From IMG/VR virus record IMGVR_UViG_3300045988_034891, positions 1 through 34,780 of that record: a stretch of 34,780 nt of DNA; one strand, written 5' to 3'. The position numbers were made by a program, and so were the translations under genes. This DNA comes from a virus. A model generated the notes under the pieces. That model saw nothing but the letters and a program-made list of their open reading frames with translations, ran no database searches and had not been told where the DNA came from. How positions within the stretch are numbered: the stretch's first letter is position 1; every line of letters starts with the position of its first letter. This document shows positions 2,826 through 31,756 of this stretch, piece by piece.

Positions 2826-3776
2826 ATGTTATCAGGTTCGTTGATGAAGAAGGAAAAAGAAGCGATAGAACGATTACAGGCCTTTTCAGCGGAAGAACCA
2901 TATTACTTGTGTTATTCCGGCGGAAAAGACAGCGACACAATACGAATTTTAGCAGAATTGGCAAACGTTAATTTTGAAGTGCATAACAATCACACAACAG
3001 TAGACGCACCGGAAACGGTTTACTACATACGGGAAGTAATAAAACAGTACGGCGACAAAGGTTTTATTCACTATCCAGAAAAGACAATGTGGCAGTTGAT
3101 CGTTGAAAAATTATTCCCGCCGACGAGACTTGCCCGCTATTGTTGCGCAGAATTGAAAGAGAAAGGCGGAAAAGGAAGAAGAAAAGTAACCGGCGTTCGT
3201 TGGGCGGAATCTAACAACCGCAAAAAAAATCAGGGGCTTGTGACGATTATCGGAAAACCTGTGACGGTTCAGAAAATAGCAACTTTAGAAGAAGCAAATT
3301 TCAGCACAACGAAAGGGGGCGGAATCATACTGAACACAGATAACGCAAGCGAACGCCGGGTTGTGGAATCATGCTACAGGACGACTTCGACACTTATAAA
3401 TCCAATTATTGACTGGACGGACGAAGAAGTATGGGAATTTCTTACATATTACGGGTGCAAGAGCAATCCGGGATATTGCGAAGGCGAAAAACGGATCGGT
3501 TGTATCGGCTGCCCGCTTGCAGGCGGAAAACAACAGAAAAAAGAATTTGAAAAATACCCAAAGTATAGACAAGCCTATGTTCATGTATTCGATAGAATGG
3601 TAGACGTCTTGAAGGCAAAAGGGAAACAGACGTTCGATCTTGTTAATGGTAAATACTGGAAGGACGGAGAAAGCGTCATGCGTTGGTGGGTTGGCGACAA
3701 CCCGATTCAAATGACGATAGACGACTACATGAAATTATTAGAAGCCGAACAAAGCATAATGGAAGAATACCGGTAA
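2826..3776 (+). CDS. PAPS reductase-family PP-loop ATP pyrophosphatase (phage DNA/nucleotide-modification-type enzyme)
   Basis: CYSGGKDSD PP-loop (SGGxDS) near the N-terminus. The Cys cluster CEGEKRIGCIGCP near the C-terminus resembles DndC/CysH-like enzymes. Confidence 0.75.
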   Translation: MLSGSLMKKEKEAIERLQAFSAEEPYYLCYSGGKDSDTIRILAELANVNFEVHNNHTTVDAPETVYYIREVIKQYGDKGFIHYPEKTMWQLIVEKLFPPTRLARYCCAELKEKGGKGRRKVTGVRWAESNNRKKNQGLVTIIGKPVTVQKIATLEEANFSTTKGGGIILNTDNASERRVVESCYRTTSTLINPIIDWTDEEVWEFLTYYGCKSNPGYCEGEKRIGCIGCPLAGGKQQKKEFEKYPKYRQAYVHVFDRMVDVLKAKGKQTFDLVNGKYWKDGESVMRWWVGDNPIQMTIDDYMKLLEAEQSIMEEYR

Positions 3777-3777
3777 A

Positions 3778-3800
3778 AAACACGAACGCGTGTTTCTTCT
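3778..3800 (+). terminator. Hairpin (AAACACG-AACG-CGTGTTT) followed by a T-rich stretch
   Basis: 7-bp stem immediately after the stop at 3776. Confidence 0.4.
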
Positions 3801-3904
3801 ATATATAAGAAAGAAATCTTAACCGTCCTTGTAATGGGTATTAACAAATCAGACACTATAAATTTTTAATATATAAATCAATATAGGACGGGAAGGGGGA
3901 TTCG

Positions 3905-4873
3905 ATGAAGAAGCAGAAACGAAGATATGATAACTACGACTACAACGAAGCGTATCAGTATGATCTTGACAAAGAGATAGAGAAGACGGCAAAAGAGAAG
4001 TTCAGACGAGAGAACCCCCTGTTGATAGATTTCGAAGAACAGTGGAAAGAGCAGCAGGCAAAACTTGAAGAATGGGAATACGAACGACTGTTGAAAGAAG
4101 GGAAGGTGGAAAGCCTTTACAGAACATCAACGATCAAGTGTAAAAACATAAAATCCGGGAAAGAGATTGCGGAAGTGATGATCTATCCGTCTTTCTATAA
4201 CCGGGCAGATATGCCACGCACGAAGAAAAAGAGAGAAACGAAGCCGTCACAAAGGAATCTGAACGACAAGAACGCCCGCCGATATGTGATCCGACTTGCG
4301 AATATCAATTTCGGTTCAGGGGATATCTGGGCGACGTTCGGGTGGGACGATCGCTACATACCGGAAGACATAGAGAGAGCAAAAAAGGACGTGACGAATT
4401 TTATCAAGCGAGTGAACCGCAAGAGAAAGAAACGCGGGTTCGATAACATGAAATATATCTACGTTCTAGCCGTTGACAATTATACGCGCCCGCACTTTCA
4501 CATACTCATGAGCGGCGACGGCGTGGATCGCGACGAATTAGAAGCAATGTGGGGAAAATGCAAGCGACCGAACACGCGCCGGGTAAAACCGGACGAAGAT
4601 TTCGGAATAACAGGCCTTGCGACCTACATTTCCCAAAATCCGCACGGAACAAAACGGTGGTGCAGTTCAAAGAACCTAAAAAAGCCACCAGAGCCGACAA
4701 GATCATACCGGAAATTCAAGAAACGCCGTGTTGAGAAAATGGCAAAGGATCACGAAACACTGAAACAGAGCCTTAAAAAAGAATACGTGGGCTATCGCTT
4801 TTTAGACGCAGAAGTGAAGTTCAACACAGTGACAGCCGCGTTTTACATATACGCAAGAATGACAAGAGACTGA
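3905..4873 (+). CDS. HUH-superfamily rolling-circle replication initiator (Rep)
   Basis: Motif I-like WATFGW, HUH motif RPHFHILMS, and a Tyr motif GLATYISQN, in the canonical order. Preceded by a 128-nt AT-rich non-coding region. Confidence 0.6.
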   Translation: MKKQKRRYDNYDYNEAYQYDLDKEIEKTAKEKFRRENPLLIDFEEQWKEQQAKLEEWEYERLLKEGKVESLYRTSTIKCKNIKSGKEIAEVMIYPSFYNRADMPRTKKKRETKPSQRNLNDKNARRYVIRLANINFGSGDIWATFGWDDRYIPEDIERAKKDVTNFIKRVNRKRKKRGFDNMKYIYVLAVDNYTRPHFHILMSGDGVDRDELEAMWGKCKRPNTRRVKPDEDFGITGLATYISQNPHGTKRWCSSKNLKKPPEPTRSYRKFKKRRVEKMAKDHETLKQSLKKEYVGYRFLDAEVKFNTVTAAFYIYARMTRD

Positions 4874-21990: not shown

Positions 21991-22229
21991 TGAAAGGCTA
22001 CGCAGCGGAAATAAACGGCGACGCAATCTTCCTGACGAAAGACGCGCAACTTGACACGGCGTTAAAAAACGGTTGTAACATTGTCAGGATCGAAGATGAC
22101 GACGGGCAAACAATAATTGCCACACCGGAAAACGGTTTTCTGGAAGACCGTCCGACATTGGAAGAAACAGGAACAATGACCAACCCATACGCGGAAGCGC
22201 TAGCAATGCTAGAGAAAGGGGAAAACTAA
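21990..22229 (+). CDS. Hypothetical protein
   Basis: GTG start overlapping the previous TAG, and a stop overlapping the next ATG (TAATG). Confidence 0.5.
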   Translation: MKGYAAEINGDAIFLTKDAQLDTALKNGCNIVRIEDDDGQTIIATPENGFLEDRPTLEETGTMTNPYAEALAMLEKGEN

Positions 22230-23131
22230 TGGCAGATATCACAATCACACAAAAGATCACGATCGAACTTGACGGGAAAAGCCCTTTTGAATATGTCGTG
22301 ATGAAACAGGGTGACAAGGGTTCACGAATTCTGGCCGTCTCATTATTACAAAACAAACAACCGTATGAAATCCCGACGGGTTGCACCGCGCGGATTAAAT
22401 ACTACAAGCCGGACGGAAACCCGGTATTGAATGACTGCACCCTGTCAGGGAATGAAATTCTTGTAACATATACGGAACAGATGCTAGCGGCTGCAGGCGT
22501 CGGAAAAGGCGAAATCGTTCTGTTAAAAGGCGGAAAGGAATTGAAGTCAGCAACCTACTACACGAAAATCGTGGAAACAGTATATAAAACCGAAGGACTG
22601 ACAAGTGATAAAGAATTTCTTTCTGTAGCAACCGTATTAAACGACATGGATCAGGCAGCGCAGAAGGCAACCGCCGAAGCGAAGATCGCGGAAGCGGCGG
22701 CAGCGACGGCGACAGAAAAGGCGCAGGCAGCAGACACGGCAGAAAGAAAGGCAACCACGGCAGCAGGAGCAGCGGACAAAGCGAAAGCGAATGCAGACGC
22801 GGCAACGAAGGCAGCAAACGAAGCGAAGACCAATGCAGAGAAAGCCACGGAAGCAACAAAAGCAGCGATCAAGAATGCAGAAGAAGCAGCAGAAACGGCG
22901 AACGTGTCGGCATCTGGGGCAGACATTGCAAAGACCAACGCAGAGAAAGCCACACAGTCGGCAAATACGGCAGCAGGCGACGCACAGAAGGCAACCACGG
23001 CAGCAAAAGCAGCAGCGGCAGCATGCGAAGGAATCGCGGCGGGAATCAACACGATCGCAGATACAACAACTGGGAAAACCTACACGATCGGAGTAGACGC
23101 CGGACGAATCTATTTAGAAGCGAGGGACTAA
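22229..23131 (+). CDS. BppU-N-like baseplate/fibre protein with a long Ala/Thr/Lys-rich coiled-coil
   Basis: The N-terminal ~120 aa resemble the Ig-like baseplate upper protein domain. The central ~170 aa are low-complexity (AEKAT-type repeats). Confidence 0.6.
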   Translation: MADITITQKITIELDGKSPFEYVVMKQGDKGSRILAVSLLQNKQPYEIPTGCTARIKYYKPDGNPVLNDCTLSGNEILVTYTEQMLAAAGVGKGEIVLLKGGKELKSATYYTKIVETVYKTEGLTSDKEFLSVATVLNDMDQAAQKATAEAKIAEAAAATATEKAQAADTAERKATTAAGAADKAKANADAATKAANEAKTNAEKATEATKAAIKNAEEAAETANVSASGADIAKTNAEKATQSANTAAGDAQKATTAAKAAAAACEGIAAGINTIADTTTGKTYTIGVDAGRIYLEARD

Positions 23132-23134
23132 AAC

Positions 23135-24421
23135 ATGGGAGAAAGAATCTATTTTGCAGACAAAGAAACACTGGATAAAACACACGCCAACACGGAAGCG
23201 ATTCTGGCAGCAGTAGAAGGCGACGACGGAAAACATAAAAATCATATCCGGTTAGGAATCAAGATTGACAAGAACAACAGCAACCCGAAAACCCGTGTCG
23301 AATACATTTACGACGCCGTGGGAATGACACCGGCCGCAATGGACTATTCAAACGGCGTTTTCAACTACGGATCATGGGAAAACGAATATTTCGCAGCCAA
23401 AGACAAAAATTACGCTTGCATGGTCAAATTTGACGGTACAGAAGATTATAAACTGAACCCGAACGATTATTCAAAGAAAACAGACGGAACAGAATCAGAC
23501 GTCGCGAATGTCGCATACGGCGGAAACGCAATGGCGGCATTTGTCGGCGGTTGGCTCTGCCAGTACGAAACAAAGACACACGAATATATCATCTGGTCCG
23601 ATGTTCAGTACGACGACGGTTATAATTGCAATCACAGAAAGGATCAGACAGGGGCGATTCGTCCGGGATTCTACAGAAGAATCTACGCGCCGACTTTATA
23701 CAACAATGTCGCCCGTTCAATCTCCGGTCAGCTTTCCATGATGGGCAAAAATGCCACACAGGAAAGAAACTACATCAAAGCAAACGGAAGCGAATGGGAG
23801 CATACATCGTGGAACGAATACAACTACATTATCTGTCTGTTAAAGATCATGGCAAAAACGGACGATCTAAAAACCGCATACGGAAACGGCAATATGAACG
23901 GATATGTCAATGATTCAGCGCAACATTACGGCGTACTACAGGCCGGCACACTGGACGACAAGGGACAGTTCTTCGGATATAACGCAAATAACAAACAGGT
24001 AAAAGTATTTCACACAGAAGCACCGTGGGGCGATCAGTGGGAAAGAATCATCGGTCTGATTTGCGACCACGGAAAAGCAAAGATCAGCGCATACGGACCG
24101 TATAATTTCACGGGCGAAGGCTACACGGAAATATACGACTATGCGGAGAAAAACGGAATCACAGCAGCAACGGGCGGATGGGCGAAGGATTCTATTTCGA
24201 CAGAACTTGGACGACTGCCGATCACATGGTCCGGGGCTTCGAACACATACTTGACTGCATATTTTTATATCGACCCGACGATTGTTGCGGTGGCGATCGT
24301 TGGAGGCTACGCGGACTACGGTGCGGCATGCGGCTTTTACGTGAATCTGGCCGATTCCGTTTCGTATGCGTACTGGTACATCGCGCCGGGCCTTTCTTGC
24401 AAAATGCCTTTAGCGGCATAG
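23135..24421 (+). CDS. DGR target protein: tail fibre/receptor-binding-like protein with a C-terminal variable region
   Basis: 428 aa. The last ~45 aa (GGYADYGAACGFYVNLADSVSYAYWYIAPGLS...) are encoded by the VR and resemble C-type-lectin-fold DGR variable regions. Confidence 0.85.
   Translation: MGERIYFADKETLDKTHANTEAILAAVEGDDGKHKNHIRLGIKIDKNNSNPKTRVEYIYDAVGMTPAAMDYSNGVFNYGSWENEYFAAKDKNYACMVKFDGTEDYKLNPNDYSKKTDGTESDVANVAYGGNAMAAFVGGWLCQYETKTHEYIIWSDVQYDDGYNCNHRKDQTGAIRPGFYRRIYAPTLYNNVARSISGQLSMMGKNATQERNYIKANGSEWEHTSWNEYNYIICLLKIMAKTDDLKTAYGNGNMNGYVNDSAQHYGVLQAGTLDDKGQFFGYNANNKQVKVFHTEAPWGDQWERIIGLICDHGKAKISAYGPYNFTGEGYTEIYDYAEKNGITAATGGWAKDSISTELGRLPITWSGASNTYLTAYFYIDPTIVAVAIVGGYADYGAACGFYVNLADSVSYAYWYIAPGLSCKMPLAA
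24287..24398 (+). repeat. DGR variable repeat (VR)
   Basis: 112 nt, 100/112 identical to the TR. All 12 differences lie at TR adenines. Ends 23 nt before the stop codon. Confidence 0.92.
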
Positions 24422-24434
24422 CCGCAAGGGGGAT

Positions 24435-24452
24435 CGGGGGATTTCTCCCCCG
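24435..24452 (+). promoter_or_regulatory. GC-rich hairpin downstream of the VR (CGGGGGA-TTTC-TCCCCCG)
   Basis: 7-bp stem with a 4-nt loop, 36 nt after the VR. This is analogous in position to the hairpin/cruciform that enhances homing in the Bordetella phage DGR. Confidence 0.5.
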
Positions 24453-24458
24453 CATAGC

Positions 24459-24487
24459 TTAAAGGAACAAACAAAAGTAAATATATA
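24459..24487 (+). promoter_or_regulatory. Candidate promoter for the TR-RT transcript (TTAAAG, 17 nt, TATATA)
   Basis: Hexamers with 17-nt spacing, 17 nt upstream of the TR. Confidence 0.3.
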
Positions 24488-24503
24488 AGGGGATAACTTG
24501 CGC

Positions 24504-24615
24504 GCGGTGGCGATCGTTGGAGGCAACGCGAACAACGGTGCGAAATGCGGCTTTTACGTGAATCTGAACAATTCCGTTTCGAATGCGAACTGGAACATCG
24601 CGCCGGGCATTTCTT
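24504..24615 (+). repeat. DGR template repeat (TR)
   Basis: Non-coding copy of the VR, rich in AAC/AAT codon-phase triplets. It has 26 adenines, 12 of which are substituted in the VR. Confidence 0.92.
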
Positions 24616-24778
24616 ATTAAATCATGGGACATTAACCAAATGCGCGAGTTATTCCTACACCACAGCAGATTGAAATATCTGTAAAGTGAAAATAGAACCG
24701 ATAAAGGCGCGGACTGGTAAACACCGGGAATCCGGTAGTTGTATAGCGTGTTGAAGGCCCGCGAGGTAATAAGAAAGA
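24616..24778 (+). ncRNA. TR-RT spacer, probably the structured 3' part of the DGR template RNA
   Basis: 163-nt non-coding region with nested stems, e.g. CGCGG (24697-24701) with CCGCG (24759-24763), and ACCGG-GAAT-CCGGT (24722-24735). Confidence 0.35.
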
Positions 24779-26119
24779 ATGATAACATTTAAAAACATAG
24801 ATCAGAATTTATACGATCCAGAAGGATTGAAAACTGATTTCAGAAAAACAGCGAAAGGAAAGAGCGGAAAAGAACAAGTTCGGAAGGTAAAGAGAAACCC
24901 GGAAAAATACGAAAAGGAACTGGAACGACAGCTTCGGACGAATACATTCACGAAGGCGACGCACCAGACGGAAACGATCAACGAATATTCATGTAAGAAA
25001 ACACGGGTACTATTGAAGCCGACGTATTTATACGAACAGCCCGCACACCACGCACTGATCCGGGCAATTATGCCCGCACTTATGCGCGGAATGTATGATT
25101 TGTCGTGTGGATCGATACCGGGACGCGGGCCACATTACGGAAAACGATTTGTTGAAAAGTGGATCAGGAACGTTCCGAAAAACTGTAAATATGTATTAAA
25201 GTTCGATATCCGGCATTTCTTCCAGAGCATACCACACCGGAAGTTAAAGAAGGCACTGAAAAAGAAGATCCGGGACCGTGTAATTTTAAAGAAATTATTC
25301 GCCGTGATCGATTGTTGCAAACAGGGCGTACCGATCGGATTTTATACGTCGCAATGGTTTGGGAACTTTTATCTGACACCATTAGACCATTACATCAAAG
25401 AAAAACTTCACGTAAAGAAAATGATTCGGTATGCCGACGACGTGGTATGTTTCGGCAGAAACAAAAAGATATTGCACGAAGCACGAAGGAAGATCGAACA
25501 ATTCCTGAACGAAGAACTGGGCTTGAAAATGAAACCGGACTGGCAGGTATTTAGATTTGAATACATCGGAAGGGACGGAAAGATTCACGGACGCGCCCTT
25601 GATTTTATGGGATTCGTATTTCACAGAGATAGAACAACGATAAGAAAAAGTATTTTGAACAGAATTCAGAAGAAAGTCAACAAAGTAAAAAGAAAAGGGA
25701 AAGTCACGTGGAAAGATGCAGCGTCTTTACTTTCAAGAATCGGATATTTTACGCATACCGACACATACAACTACTATCTGGATCATGTAAAACCTTATAT
25801 CAAAGTTAAGGCATTGAAACAGTTAATCAGCAAACACACAAGAAGGGAGCGACTAAAAAATGGAATGGATCAAAAGAGAAGGAACACAAACAGAACGCCC
25901 GGCGGATTTAGACATCACATCAAGCGCGACAACCGTATACCAGAGAAGAAACCAGAAACAGGAAGAAAGAGAGAATCAGGACGGGACAAAGGAACTGATC
26001 TGGACCTACGAAGAAATGGAAATGAGCCGGGAAGAATACGACAGAGGACAGGCGGAACTTGTGTCGCCACTTGCACTGGCAATCATGCAGAGCAACACGG
26101 AGTTGATCGCAAAGAATGA
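24779..26119 (+). CDS. DGR reverse transcriptase
   Basis: RT motifs KFDIRHFFQSI, VPIGFYTSQWFGNFYL (the SQ-containing motif 4 typical of DGR RTs) and IRYADDVV. The last ~86 codons are basic, low-complexity and overlap the next gene. Confidence 0.9.
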   Translation: MITFKNIDQNLYDPEGLKTDFRKTAKGKSGKEQVRKVKRNPEKYEKELERQLRTNTFTKATHQTETINEYSCKKTRVLLKPTYLYEQPAHHALIRAIMPALMRGMYDLSCGSIPGRGPHYGKRFVEKWIRNVPKNCKYVLKFDIRHFFQSIPHRKLKKALKKKIRDRVILKKLFAVIDCCKQGVPIGFYTSQWFGNFYLTPLDHYIKEKLHVKKMIRYADDVVCFGRNKKILHEARRKIEQFLNEELGLKMKPDWQVFRFEYIGRDGKIHGRALDFMGFVFHRDRTTIRKSILNRIQKKVNKVKRKGKVTWKDAASLLSRIGYFTHTDTYNYYLDHVKPYIKVKALKQLISKHTRRERLKNGMDQKRRNTNRTPGGFRHHIKRDNRIPEKKPETGRKRESGRDKGTDLDLRRNGNEPGRIRQRTGGTCVATCTGNHAEQHGVDRKE

Positions 26120-26189
26120 GTTATTGCAGATTCAAGTCGAAATGTTACTGGACACATTAAGCAGCACCGACGAAACGGAAGGAGAATAA
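25860..26189 (+). CDS. Small conserved-looking hypothetical protein occupying the XkdW position
   Basis: Protein-like sequence (WIKREGTQ...TVYQRRN...WTYEEMEMSREEY...) followed by XkdX. The naming is by position only. Confidence 0.5.
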   Translation: MEWIKREGTQTERPADLDITSSATTVYQRRNQKQEERENQDGTKELIWTYEEMEMSREEYDRGQAELVSPLALAIMQSNTELIAKNELLQIQVEMLLDTLSSTDETEGE

Positions 26190-29301: not shown

Positions 29302-31047
29302 TTAATCACGGTATATAAATTTATGTGAAAGACCATTCGCGAACACGATTTCCGTCACGCGGCGATCTTTTACCGTGATATGATCCAAAACCAGATTGAA
29401 AAACTCTTTGATTGATTCTTCTTCGACCATTCCGGCCAGATCACTATATACGATATGAGATCCGGCACGGATCTTATGCGTCAGAAGAAAAGCGGAAGCG
29501 GATTTCACAAAGGCGGATTCATCAACACCGGAAGCGATATGCGTTTCAGTCAGTTCTTTCAATTTGTTTTCGGCAGCCACGCGCCCGGAATCAAACCGAT
29601 TTTTCTTTTCCAGATATTCTTTTTCACTCATTCCGTCGTCACTGAAATAATACGCATCTTCCAGACGCTCTTTCGCATGTTCATATTTTCGGATCTGATC
29701 TTTCAGGCTTTCAATTTCTGCCGGATCAGCGGCCACGCCTTTCTGATCCACCAGATCAGCGCGCCATAACGCGCCACCCGTGGCAGATTTGCCAGTTAAT
29801 AGTTCAAAGGTATTATTTAAGCTATCCGACGATAAACCCATAATATCGGCAAATACGGCCTTGTCAGACAGAAGCATTTCTTCCAGATCTTCTGGGGTTT
29901 TGATCTTCCGTCGTTCGTTTGATACGCGGACCATAGCTGATATATAGTTAATCACAAACGGACCAATCTTCACGTCACTGACGTTTAGGTTCTGACAGTG
30001 AATCGCCCGCGTTTTTGCGCCGCAATAATACATAGACGGGGTAAAGCCATTCTTTCGGCGTTTATCCTTTTTGCCCACTAGATAACCAGAACCACACGAA
30101 CCGCACTGGATCAGACCGGCGAAGACATTACAATTCTTTTCTACCGGGTGCAATCCACCCATATTTCTTTTATCCCGGTTGATATCCATAATTTTATTGA
30201 CTTTTTCCCATATTTCAGGATCAATGAGCGGATCAAAGACACCTTCAAGGTACACAACTTCGTTAATCGGCTTTTTTCGACCGCGCGCGCTTTCCCGGTA
30301 ATTATAACGATAGTCGCCTTTGTTCATCGGATTTCGCAGAAAATCGCCGACAGTTTTAGAAGTCCATTCGCCGCCGCGCTTGGTCGGAATCTTGTGAGCA
30401 TTGTTATAATCGCGGATCTTTCCGGTCGATTTAACTTCCAGATACATTTCATACATTGCCCGCGCAAACGGAGCTTCCTTTTTGGAATGCACCGGCCACC
30501 CGGCGGACGAATCCCAGTCCCACCCATAAGGTACACGCGCGCCGTTCCATTTCCCTTCGTTGGCGCGTCCGATCATAATATCTTTCACGCGTTCACTTGT
30601 CAGTTTTCTTTCCAGTTCCGCAAATACAAGAATAATCTTCAGGACAGCTTCACCGATCGCGGAAGACGTGTCAAATTGTTCGTTCAGTGAAACAAACGTC
30701 ACGCGGTTGTATTTGAAATCGTCATACATCAAAGAGAAGTCAACCAGATTTCGGGAAATACGGTCGATTTTATACACCAGAACGTGAGACACAAGCCCAG
30801 CGCGGACTTTCTGCATCATTCTTTCATACGCCGGCCGTTTCGTATTCTTACCGGATCGCCCGGCATCTTCGAAGATCTCTACACGCGACATATCAACGTG
30901 TAAGATATGCTTACAATATGCTTTCAGTTCCTTTTTCTGGAACGGAAGCGAATCTTTATCGACCTGATACCCAGTCGATACACGAACATAGATCGCAACG
31001 ATCCGATCGTTGGCACTGGCAGCAGGTACTTTCATAGCATAAGCCAT
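29302..31047 (-). CDS. int: Large serine recombinase (integrase)
   Basis: N-terminal resolvase domain: IVAIYVRVSTGYQ (catalytic Ser context) and VLVYKIDRISRN. It is followed by a recombinase domain and Cys-rich zinc-ribbon (CGSCGS...CGAKTRAIHC) and a coiled-coil. The track ORF starts at a TTG at 31104, but the ATG at 31047 is preferred. Confidence 0.9.
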   Translation of the reverse strand: MAYAMKVPAASANDRIVAIYVRVSTGYQVDKDSLPFQKKELKAYCKHILHVDMSRVEIFEDAGRSGKNTKRPAYERMMQKVRAGLVSHVLVYKIDRISRNLVDFSLMYDDFKYNRVTFVSLNEQFDTSSAIGEAVLKIILVFAELERKLTSERVKDIMIGRANEGKWNGARVPYGWDWDSSAGWPVHSKKEAPFARAMYEMYLEVKSTGKIRDYNNAHKIPTKRGGEWTSKTVGDFLRNPMNKGDYRYNYRESARGRKKPINEVVYLEGVFDPLIDPEIWEKVNKIMDINRDKRNMGGLHPVEKNCNVFAGLIQCGSCGSGYLVGKKDKRRKNGFTPSMYYCGAKTRAIHCQNLNVSDVKIGPFVINYISAMVRVSNERRKIKTPEDLEEMLLSDKAVFADIMGLSSDSLNNTFELLTGKSATGGALWRADLVDQKGVAADPAEIESLKDQIRKYEHAKERLEDAYYFSDDGMSEKEYLEKKNRFDSGRVAAENKLKELTETHIASGVDESAFVKSASAFLLTHKIRAGSHIVYSDLAGMVEEESIKEFFNLVLDHITVKDRRVTEIVFANGLSHKFIYRD

Positions 31048-31188
31048 AATATACACAACATTTCTATTTTTTCTAAAAAAGGGTATAAAAATAAGCCCTT
31101 TCAAAGATTGTGGGCCTATGCTATAATAACACTTGCTAGGGAGTTATCATAGTCAGCCCACGGTTGACGGGTAACAATCTATATAAAG

Positions 31189-31225: not shown

Positions 31226-31756
31226 TTATTCAGTTTCTAATTTGTAAGTTATTTCTACAGTAGCACCGAAACGATATTCGTCTTTTTCCAGAACGTAACC
31301 TTCGTCACGATCCCAAACAACTTTATATTTTCCGCCGAAAATTGAACAATCAATATCAGTAACGCGACCAGAAGAAAGAAGATTCTTCACGCGGGAGCAA
31401 CTGCCTTTCTTGATATAACCGATATGAACATCATCAACAACAACCTTTACGGCGTTCGAATCGTATTCATTTTCGGGTTCGGGAATCAATTCAACTTTTG
31501 AAACTGGAAAATCATATTGAAAAATCTTTTCGTCATACATGAAATCATCAACGATCTGCTTCTTCGTCTTTTCGTAATCATCATTTTCATACGCTAATTC
31601 CATTAGATTATCCATATACGAAGAAATTCCGGCAACCTTGAAATTATCAGTTTTCGTCGGGATAACAGGCTTCGACGGAGCGGAAACGACCGGATCAGGC
31701 GAAACCGGATTATCCTTCTTTTTAAATAACTTTCCGAATAGTCCTATTTTAGACAC
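31226..31756 (-). CDS. HIRAN-domain protein
   Basis: FKVAGIS ... VELIPEPENEYDSNAVKVVVDDVHIGYIKKGSCSRVKNLL ... matches the HIRAN pattern (EP.N.yD.nAv.V ... iGYi). GTG start with a poorly spaced SD. Confidence 0.65.
   Translation of the reverse strand: MSKIGLFGKLFKKKDNPVSPDPVVSAPSKPVIPTKTDNFKVAGISSYMDNLMELAYENDDYEKTKKQIVDDFMYDEKIFQYDFPVSKVELIPEPENEYDSNAVKVVVDDVHIGYIKKGSCSRVKNLLSSGRVTDIDCSIFGGKYKVVWDRDEGYVLEKDEYRFGATVEITYKLETE

Follow-up and report, generated by a model that had tools for sequence, protein, structure and literature searches.

We describe here a diversity-generating retroelement (DGR) that is carried by a phage of human-gut bacteria and directed at the 3′ end of a tail-fibre gene. 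It lies in the IMG/VR virus record IMGVR_UViG_3300045988_034891, of which positions 1 to 34,780 were analysed (a stretch of 34,780 nucleotides (nt), referred to below as the window). The cassette consists of a target gene that ends in a variable repeat (VR), a non-coding template repeat (TR) and a gene for a reverse transcriptase (RT), and it has no recognizable gene for the accessory protein Avd (Table 1). We put the probability that this is a complete, Avd-less and bona fide DGR at roughly 0.93. The assignment follows from five lines of evidence: a repeat pair that differs at adenines only, an RT of the DGR type, the predicted fold class of the target, co-variation of TR and VR among relatives, and purifying selection on the cassette. 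Judged from the sequences compared, the DGR is probably active.

Table 1 Features of the DGR cassette and the adjoining gene
Feature	Position	Strand	Remarks
DGR target, 428-aa tail-fibre/receptor-binding protein	23135..24421	+	phrog_5302; VR in the last ~45 codons
VR	24287..24398	+	gapless match to the TR with mismatches at A only; mutable A-templated positions 24296-24380
IMH-like VR 3′ end	24382..24408	+	11-nt G/C-only run 24382-24392, then TTTCTTGCAAAATGCC; fixed differences from the TR
Hairpin 1, GCGGC-ATA-GCCGC	24413..24425	+	target stop codon TAG in loop and stem
Hairpin 2, CGGGGGA-TTTC-TCCCCCG	24435..24452	+	G/C-rich 7-bp stem, 4-nt loop, no T-run after it
TR, non-coding	24504..24619	+	includes the IMH*-like 3′ end: A24609, then TTTCTTATTA at 24610-24619
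TR-RT spacer, presumed structured part of the DGR RNA	24620..24778	+	conserved motif, hairpin, TAATAAGAAA
DGR RT open reading frame, 446 aa	24779..26119	+	conserved core ~24779-25858; remainder is read-on into the next gene
Acidic 109-aa phage gene	25860..26189	+	pI 4.3; phrog_20201, no Pfam match; outside the DGR, upstream of XkdX
aa, amino acids; IMH, initiation of mutagenic homing.

The repeat pair

The two repeats (24287-24398 for the VR, 24504-24615 for the TR) align without gaps over 112 nt, at an offset of 217 nt. Compared base by base, they show 12 mismatches, and in all 12 the TR base is an adenine (five A>T, four A>G and three A>C). The TR has 26 adenines within these 112 nt, and at positions with any other base there are no differences; the probability of placing 12 of 12 mismatches on the 26 adenines is 2.2e-9 (hypergeometric). 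Every substitution hits the first or second base of a codon in the target frame (gene 23135-24421), in which the VR makes up codons 385-421 of 428, and in the same frame the TR offers nine AAY codons (AAC/AAT) together with AAA, TAC and ATC. By computation, free replacement of adenines (A>N) in the TR codons of 24504-24599 would allow about 5e13 different peptides. The alignment, the number and kind of mismatches, their codon positions and the translations of both repeats had been given in an earlier note made from the letters of this DNA, and all of them were reproduced. Sequence similarity between the repeats ends upstream of 24287 and fades past 24398, and the TR contains no degenerate positions. 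When the whole window was searched with the A->N pattern of the TR, the VR and the TR were the sole matches, and the element therefore has one target.

The earlier note had attributed all 12 mismatches to adenine-specific transfer from TR to VR, and here it stands for 11 of them only. At the remaining mismatch, which is also the 3′-most one (A24609 in the TR, C24392 in the VR, Ile>Leu), every VR of the lineage has C, and of the 52 homologues aligned, 50 carry Leu at residue 420 and none has Ile, Val or Phe there. By these sequences it is therefore a fixed TR/VR difference of the type that distinguishes IMH* from IMH, not a product of mutagenesis, so that 11 substitutions, out of 25 adenines, count as mutagenic. 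Four codons upstream, residue 416 takes the full range of Ile, Val, Leu and Phe. With residue 416 variable and residue 420 fixed, the mutagenic window ends between 24380 and 24392, within the G/C-only run CGCGCCGGGCC.

Three related loci have VR/TR pairs that also differ at non-adenine positions, with 2, 6 and 4 such mismatches in L014, L054 and L083, respectively. This suggests cassettes in which homing has been arrested, or assembly chimeras across variable reads.

The reverse transcriptase

The open reading frame (ORF) that begins 163 nt 3′ of the TR matches RVT_1 (E 1.9e-14) and phrog_1423 'reverse transcriptase' (E 2.4e-93), the matches spanning residues 2-388. Its best match in the PDB is 8ub7, a 328-aa 'Reverse transcriptase' (E 2.9e-20, residues 13-333), and the next-best ones are a group II intron RT (2.5e-9), 11 orders of magnitude behind, and retron RTs. 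The numbering of 8ub7 puts D138, I181, G182, Q187 and D215/D216 at the active-site residues of bRT, the RT of Bordetella phage BPP-1 (bioRxiv 10.1101/2023.10.23.563531), which identifies 8ub7 as bRT. The enzyme described here keeps the equivalents of all these residues and of bRT K29 and R74; two of them, R74 and I181, promote adenine mutagenesis in bRT (PMC7826257). In agreement with the motifs and the 163-nt gap reported for it before, it has YADD at residue 218 and IGFYTSQ at residue 186. The latter is an instance of the DGR signature [I/V/L]GxxxSQ, in place of which group II intron and retroviral RTs have QGxxxSP (PMC7826257).

Models of other RT classes fit far less well. The NCBIfam group II model (TIGR04416) scored 86.5 bits against a cut-off of 300, and the retron, AbiA, Drt2, Drt3a and Drt5 models gave 21.8-63.5 bits against cut-offs of 200-600, the highest being Drt3a (63.5) and retron St85 (61.7). 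At Rfam gathering thresholds, the window gave neither a group II intron RNA nor a retron RNA. Taken together, the match to bRT, the SQ motif and the sub-cut-off scores of the rival models support a DGR-type RT, and the group II, retron or Abi origin that the earlier note had named as the outcome to look out for did not emerge.

The target protein

Residues 7-425 of the target match phrog_5302 'tail protein' (E 1e-60), and the protein has no match in Pfam or NCBIfam. Its AlphaFold2 model, built with 52 homologues, has a mean predicted local distance difference test (pLDDT) score of 86 and a predicted TM-score (pTM) of 0.88, and the variable loop 393-397 is its sole low-confidence part. The top fold match of this model in the PDB is TaqVP, the DGR variable protein of Thermus aquaticus (5vf4; E 1.7e-7, probability 1.0, ~380 columns, TM 0.42-0.47). 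EgtB/FGE-type folds are among the weak PDB matches, and the fold matches in BFVD include many gut-phage 'tail collar fiber' proteins, among them those of crAss-like phages. The link to TaqVP comes from fold comparison only, as a search of the PDB by sequence gave no match either with the single sequence or with the 52-sequence profile. The model supports a place for the target in the C-type-lectin-type fold class, which is the fold that had been predicted for it from the sequence. The tentaclin family (PMC10743442) was also weighed as a possible family of the target and discarded, as its members carry a C-lectin domain at the N terminus with immunoglobulin domains after it.

The gene upstream of the target (22229-23131, plus strand) encodes a BppU_N-domain protein, the C-terminal half of which is long, rich in Ala, Lys and Thr, of low complexity and coiled-coil-like. 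This protein probably forms the fibre shaft that bears the DGR-diversified protein.

Variation and selection across samples

Sequences from different samples were compared in place of read mapping, and synonymous and nonsynonymous changes were counted against the near-identical phages L008-L011, whose RTs are 98% identical. The target belongs to a 90%-identity cluster of 978 members, and 14 full-length ones sampled from it differ at 16 of the 29 residues in 388-416 and at 20 of the 387 residues elsewhere, and no two of their VRs are alike. Hypervariability is found at 13 residues (388, 392, 394, 395, 398, 402, 404, 406, 407, 411, 413, 415 and 416). Among the 52 homologues, the variable columns hold exactly the amino acids that A>N changes in the TR codon can reach, namely Ile, Val, Leu and Phe at residue 416 (ATC), Tyr, Cys, Ser and Phe at residue 402 (TAC), and a 15-residue spectrum at the AAY positions, while the scaffold residues G391, G396, C399, G400 and W414 are invariant or nearly so. 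The TRs of L008-L011 show a few non-adenine differences from the window TR, each of which is mirrored in the cognate VR, as continued overwriting of every VR from its own TR would predict. The VRs of these phages differ among themselves at adenine positions, and their TRs are identical or nearly so. The expectation of the earlier note that polymorphism would be confined to sites matching TR adenines is thus borne out across samples: variation is restricted to TR-adenine codons, and at other sites TR and VR change together.

The counts of synonymous against nonsynonymous changes are 29-35 versus 5-7 in the RT core, 50-62 versus 10-15 in the target outside the VR, and 2-3 versus 11-17 in the VR. 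By this measure both the RT core and the target scaffold are under purifying selection. Almost all of about 60 related IMG/VR loci have a VR/TR pair with mismatches at adenines only, in the same arrangement.

Some relatives are without the cassette or have it in a decayed form. The DGR-free loci L165-L168 (2677-4321) contain a 425-aa fibre gene that is 44% identical to the target and shares its C-terminal scaffold motifs; 46 nt further on comes the 109-aa gene, then XkdX, and TR, RT and hairpins are all absent. This empty site shows that TR and RT are an optional module, placed between the fibre gene and the one that precedes XkdX, in line with the earlier placement of the cassette between the fibre genes and the XkdX/lysis genes. 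In other relatives the cassette has decayed: frameshifts have split the RT into fragments in L159 and L162, which are Mediterraneibacter gnavus-type prophages, and the RT is almost wholly deleted in L160 and L150/L151, where the VR/TR pair still differs at adenines only. The VRs of these decayed cassettes look like frozen alleles.

Cis-acting elements and a candidate priming duplex

Beginning at 24392, fixed differences set the VR (CTTTCTTGCAAAATGCC) apart from the TR (ATTTCTTATTAAATCAT), and the VR-specific bases are the same in all lineages. By comparison with BPP-1 (PMC5758913), the VR 3′ end would be the IMH and the TR 3′ end the IMH*, both as candidate assignments. Two hairpins follow the VR. 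The position of hairpin 1 is constant in all lineages, and its stem occurs in five fully complementary versions (GCGGC/GCCGC, GCTGC/GCAGC, GCCGC/GCGGC, GTGGC/GCCAC and, in phage Arawn, GCGTC/GACGC). Hairpin 2 is likewise conserved in position, with TTTC, TTTT, AACA, TACT, TTTA or GCAC as its loop and CGGAGG/CCTCCG as its stem in the short-spacer clade. Both are absent after the fibre gene of the DGR-free locus L165. These hairpins correspond to the GC-rich inverted repeat found downstream of the BPP-1 IMH (PMC5758913). Single-sequence minimum-free-energy folds were not more stable than those of shuffled sequences, with z -0.37 for the post-VR region and z -1.19 for TR plus spacer.

In the spacer, the motif TTAACCAAATGC (24632-24643) and the block AGGnnATAAGAAA just before the RT start are invariant across clades. 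A spacer hairpin, GCAGAT-TGAAAT-ATCTGT (24665-24682), has three pairs with compensatory changes in a within-clade fold; across the two clades together, the alignment was poor and RNAalifold yielded a weak structure. The last 10 nt of AGGnnATAAGAAA, which are TAATAAGAAA (24767-24776), are perfectly complementary to the TR 3′ end, TTTCTTATTA (24610-24619). Relatives whose RTs are 32-61% identical retain 8-10 bp of complementarity, with co-ordinated changes at the distal end, and complementarity of such length is found in 0.5-2.5% of random windows. The base just 5′ of the duplex is A in the TR and a fixed pyrimidine in the VR in every lineage examined.

In BPP-1, the TR 3′ end pairs with a spacer segment, the terminal adenosine of which primes cDNA synthesis, and the first template base is the one just 5′ of the duplex (bioRxiv 10.1101/2023.10.23.563531). 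On this analogy, TR 24610-24619 and spacer 24767-24776 are a candidate priming duplex, with A24609 as the putative first template base. The fixed difference between TR and VR at that base fits a first template position that lies outside the transferred segment. More tentatively, and with the odds against it, the cassette might represent an Avd-independent DGR whose RNA is organized unlike that of BPP-1, UUUCUUAUUA pairing with UAAUAAGAAA, the last 10 nt of the spacer, and the duplex ending 2 nt before the RT start. If this were true, the priming adenosine and the translation-initiation region of the RT would be one piece of RNA, translation of the RT would be coupled to priming in cis, and the Avd-binding stem-loop would be dispensable. 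As an alternative role, the duplex may control translation of the RT.

A search of the whole window with Rfam found nothing at gathering thresholds, and there are no tRNAs. On the minus strand, a stop-free stretch of 109 codons (24462-24788, pI 11) runs antisense to TR and spacer and was considered as a hidden Avd-like gene. Neither its frame nor its extent is conserved from one lineage to the next, and gene callers did not call it; it was rejected and is judged a by-product of how the TR is composed. Relatives also have long antisense stop-free stretches at TR and spacer, in other frames and of other extents.

The end of the RT and the gene that follows

The RT ORF overruns the 109-aa gene by 260 nt in another frame, and across lineages this overlap ranges from 4 to 260 nt. 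The 109-aa gene is kept after the RT in all relatives (33-100% identity), and RT residues 356-446 are conserved only in near-identical loci. Within the overlap, the RT frame shows 1-2 synonymous versus 3-5 nonsynonymous changes and the 109-aa frame 4-5 synonymous versus 1 nonsynonymous. According to these counts, selection in the overlap acts on the 109-aa frame, the last ~86 codons of the RT are unconstrained read-on, and the functional RT probably ends near 25858, not at 26119. The gene callers used for public assemblies omit the 109-aa gene, favouring the long RT call. By its position, the 109-aa gene resembles XkdW.

Weighing the evidence

Several observations weigh against a complete DGR in current use. 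Neither Pfam nor PHROGs gave a match to Avd or a four-helix bundle in any ORF of the window, phrog_3206 (Avd) never being hit, and with 82 nt between the target stop codon and the TR there is no room for Avd between VR, TR and RT. In the BPP-1 paradigm Avd is essential. The pLDDT of the variable loop (residues 393-397) is below 50. Covariation in the TR:spacer duplex is not significant (85% of cells pair, against 47-69% in slid controls, and 55 of 500 shuffles were equal to it), and in the sister clade this duplex has only 6 bp and a bulge. A scan for sigma-70-like promoters upstream of the TR found no site. As regards the present rate of diversification, four other assemblies (L001-L004) have a VR identical to that of the window; some of them may share a study or a host, the European Nucleotide Archive (ENA) accession numbers of L003 and L004 being close. 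With respect to Avd, its gene is absent from 26% of curated DGRs, and one RT lineage (Lineage 3) is wholly without it (Wu et al. 2018, PMC5758913); most DGR-bearing temperate phages of Faecalibacterium prausnitzii likewise have no detectable Avd (Cornuault et al. 2018, PMC5883640).

The VR shared with L001-L004, the lack of Avd and the existence of relatives with decayed cassettes (a frameshifted RT in L159 and L162, a deleted RT with the A-only pair kept in L160) could all be taken to mean that the DGR is a fossil, which was once active and has left a frozen VR allele in the window phage. We regard this as unlikely. The RT is intact, retains all catalytic and DGR motifs and shows the excess of synonymous changes given above (29-35 versus 5-7), the TR has neither degenerate positions nor non-adenine mismatches with the VR, and sister phages with 98% RT identity each have their own VR, with TR and VR co-varying; the four identical VRs, moreover, may partly come from one study or host. 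Far less can be said for an RT of another class (a group II maturase, a retron or an Abi/Drt defence enzyme) next to a repeat that is a duplication diverged by chance. Such a view could draw on the weak NCBIfam matches to group II, Drt3a and retron St85 models, and on the Butyrivibrio phages Arawn and Idris, in the description of which the homologous RT was read as prophage immunity and a DGR was not recognized (PMC7372960). Yet the scores lie 3- to 20-fold under the curated cut-offs, in E-value bRT surpasses the best group II RT by 11 orders of magnitude, the enzyme has the SQ motif and not QGxxxSP (PMC7826257), intron or retron RNA is missing at Rfam gathering scores, and an A-only pattern of p~2e-9 recurs in dozens of lineages, including Arawn with 9 of 9 mismatches. 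This alternative is effectively refuted.

Acceptance of a DGR also raises the possibility that the 109-aa gene (25860-26189) is an accessory factor that replaces Avd, which would make the cassette a new DGR architecture. The gene does follow or overlap the RT in every RT-bearing relative found, including those with RTs only 32-37% identical, and Wu et al. described a small acidic accessory protein (CH1) that is confined to avd-less DGRs (PMC5758913). However, the same gene stands 46 nt after the homologous fibre gene and before XkdX in L165-L168, which have neither TR nor RT, it persists in L159 and L162 with their frameshifted RT and in L160 with its deleted one, and its size of ~109 aa does not match the 160-169 aa of CH1. 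Its presence in DGR-free and RT-decayed relatives marks it as a phage gene, the linkage of which to the RT is explained by a shared module order; we therefore rejected it as an Avd substitute and hold such a role to be very improbable. The preferred reading is thus that of an Avd-less DGR made up of target, TR and RT alone.

Comparison with known systems

This kind of DGR is already known. Avd-less tail-fibre DGRs of gut Firmicutes phages are well documented, relatives of the present cassette are found in IMG/VR, and gut phages of Firmicutes and Bacteroidetes dominate the viral DGR clades, with targets that are mostly C-lectin-fold tail proteins (PMC8144416).

The cassette of BPP-1 (mtd-VR/avd/TR/brt) shares with the one described here the adenine-specific differences between TR and VR, a VR at the 3′ end of a receptor-binding tail-fibre gene, and an RT with [I/V/L]GxxxSQ, bRT being the best PDB match. 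Further likenesses are a VR 3′ end with a G/C run and VR-specific bases (IMH versus IMH*), a hairpin rich in G/C after the VR, a structured spacer between TR and RT, and a TR 3′ end complementary to that spacer. Unlike BPP-1, the window has no avd, its target has no sequence similarity to Mtd, and its host is a Gram-positive gut anaerobe. The candidate primer strand here lies in the extreme 3′ part of the spacer and is 2 nt away from the RT start codon, whereas in BPP-1 it is found in mid-spacer (Sp47-56), and there are two hairpins after the VR here, the first of which contains the stop codon.

The DGRs of F. prausnitzii phages such as FP_Epona also belong to temperate gut Firmicutes phages and have the same order of target-VR, TR and RT with a tail or Mtd-like target. 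In FP_Epona the RT is 39% identical, and the first 330 residues of the target have 28% identity to its 'BPP-1-like major tropism determinant'; however, this phage belongs to another phage lineage with another host family, and the target C-terminus cannot be aligned to that of Epona. The closest cultured relatives are the Butyrivibrio phages Arawn and Idris (Arawnvirus), in which a tail protein (36% identical) is followed after ~380 nt by an RT (42% identical) in the same module order. Arawn (L185, NC_048848.1) contains a 111-nt VR/TR pair (2986-3096 and 3228-3338) with 9 of 9 mismatches at TR adenines and an RT at 3495-4640. Both phages carry the DGR without annotation and share hairpin 1, hairpin 2 and the spacer motif TTAAC(A/C)AAATG with the window, but they differ in having rumen hosts, ~31-kb genomes and another TR 3′-end sequence. 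TaqVP and the target are both DGR variable proteins in which the VR is C-terminal and sits on a C-type-lectin-type fold; TaqVP differs in being cellular rather than part of a phage tail and in having only 11-13% identity, and the moderate TM-score means that the domain arrangement is different.

Proposed mechanism and implications

By analogy with known systems, and by analogy only, we infer an RNA intermediate, a role for the hairpins and an ecological function, as follows. TR and the 163-nt spacer would be transcribed as in BPP-1, and the RT (24779-~25858) would copy the TR into cDNA, misincorporating opposite adenines only, as its BPP-1 counterpart does. The cDNA would then replace the VR at the 3′ end of the tail-fibre gene, targeted by the G/C run and the VR-specific bases at the VR 3′ end together with the two G/C-rich hairpins downstream. 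In this way up to 13 residues (~5e13 variants) could be randomized on a receptor-binding domain of the C-type-lectin type, and the phage population might keep up with the shifting surface receptors of its host.

For annotation, these results mean that 23135-25858 should be labelled as a DGR (target with VR, TR and RT) and that the 446-aa RT call needs a flag, as it runs over into a real gene downstream. They add to the well-supported cases in which temperate phages of gut Lachnospiraceae hypermutate a tail fibre, and in this one the cross-sample evidence of VR overwriting from the TR is unusually clean. Intact, decaying and DGR-free relatives with the same fibre gene, together with the cultured phages Arawn and Idris, form a natural comparison set, and the latter two could serve as an experimental model for Avd-independent mutagenic retrohoming. 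The general picture is unchanged, since phage tail-protein DGRs are known to be abundant in the human gut.

The phage and its relatives

The plus strand of the window encodes terminase, portal, protease, capsid and tape measure proteins, then Sipho_tail, Prophage_tail and BppU_N proteins, and further XkdX, a holin and a GH25/CW_7/LysM endolysin; a large serine recombinase and Cro/CI-type regulators are encoded on the other strand. RT genes identical to the one in the window are present in human-gut metagenome assemblies, and the nearest genome relatives are found in the Lachnospiraceae Blautia producta, [Ruminococcus] faecis and Agathobacter. Gene content and relatives accordingly indicate a temperate siphovirus-type phage of ~35 kb from human-gut Lachnospiraceae, which agrees with the temperate Firmicutes-type siphovirus named in the earlier note. 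A megablast search of the cassette against GenBank phages gave no match, and relatives were found at the protein level only.

The lysogeny module (29302-31104 and 31226-31756, both on the minus strand) has the large serine recombinase (Resolvase/Recombinase/Zn-ribbon) beside a HIRAN-domain protein and Cro/CI-type helix-turn-helix regulators; relatives such as L163 have a tyrosine integrase in place of the serine recombinase. The early region contains two moron-like genes on the plus strand (2016-2525 and 2826-3776), which are phosphoheptose-isomerase-like (phrog_1238) and PAPS-reductase-like (phrog_424). In the sister clade, direct repeats of 138 nt with a few non-adenine mismatches are found ~4 kb downstream of the RT (L031 7957-8247, L041 7960-8250, L055 4299-4589 and L070 5841-6131); these are probably the repeated cell-wall-binding modules of the endolysin.

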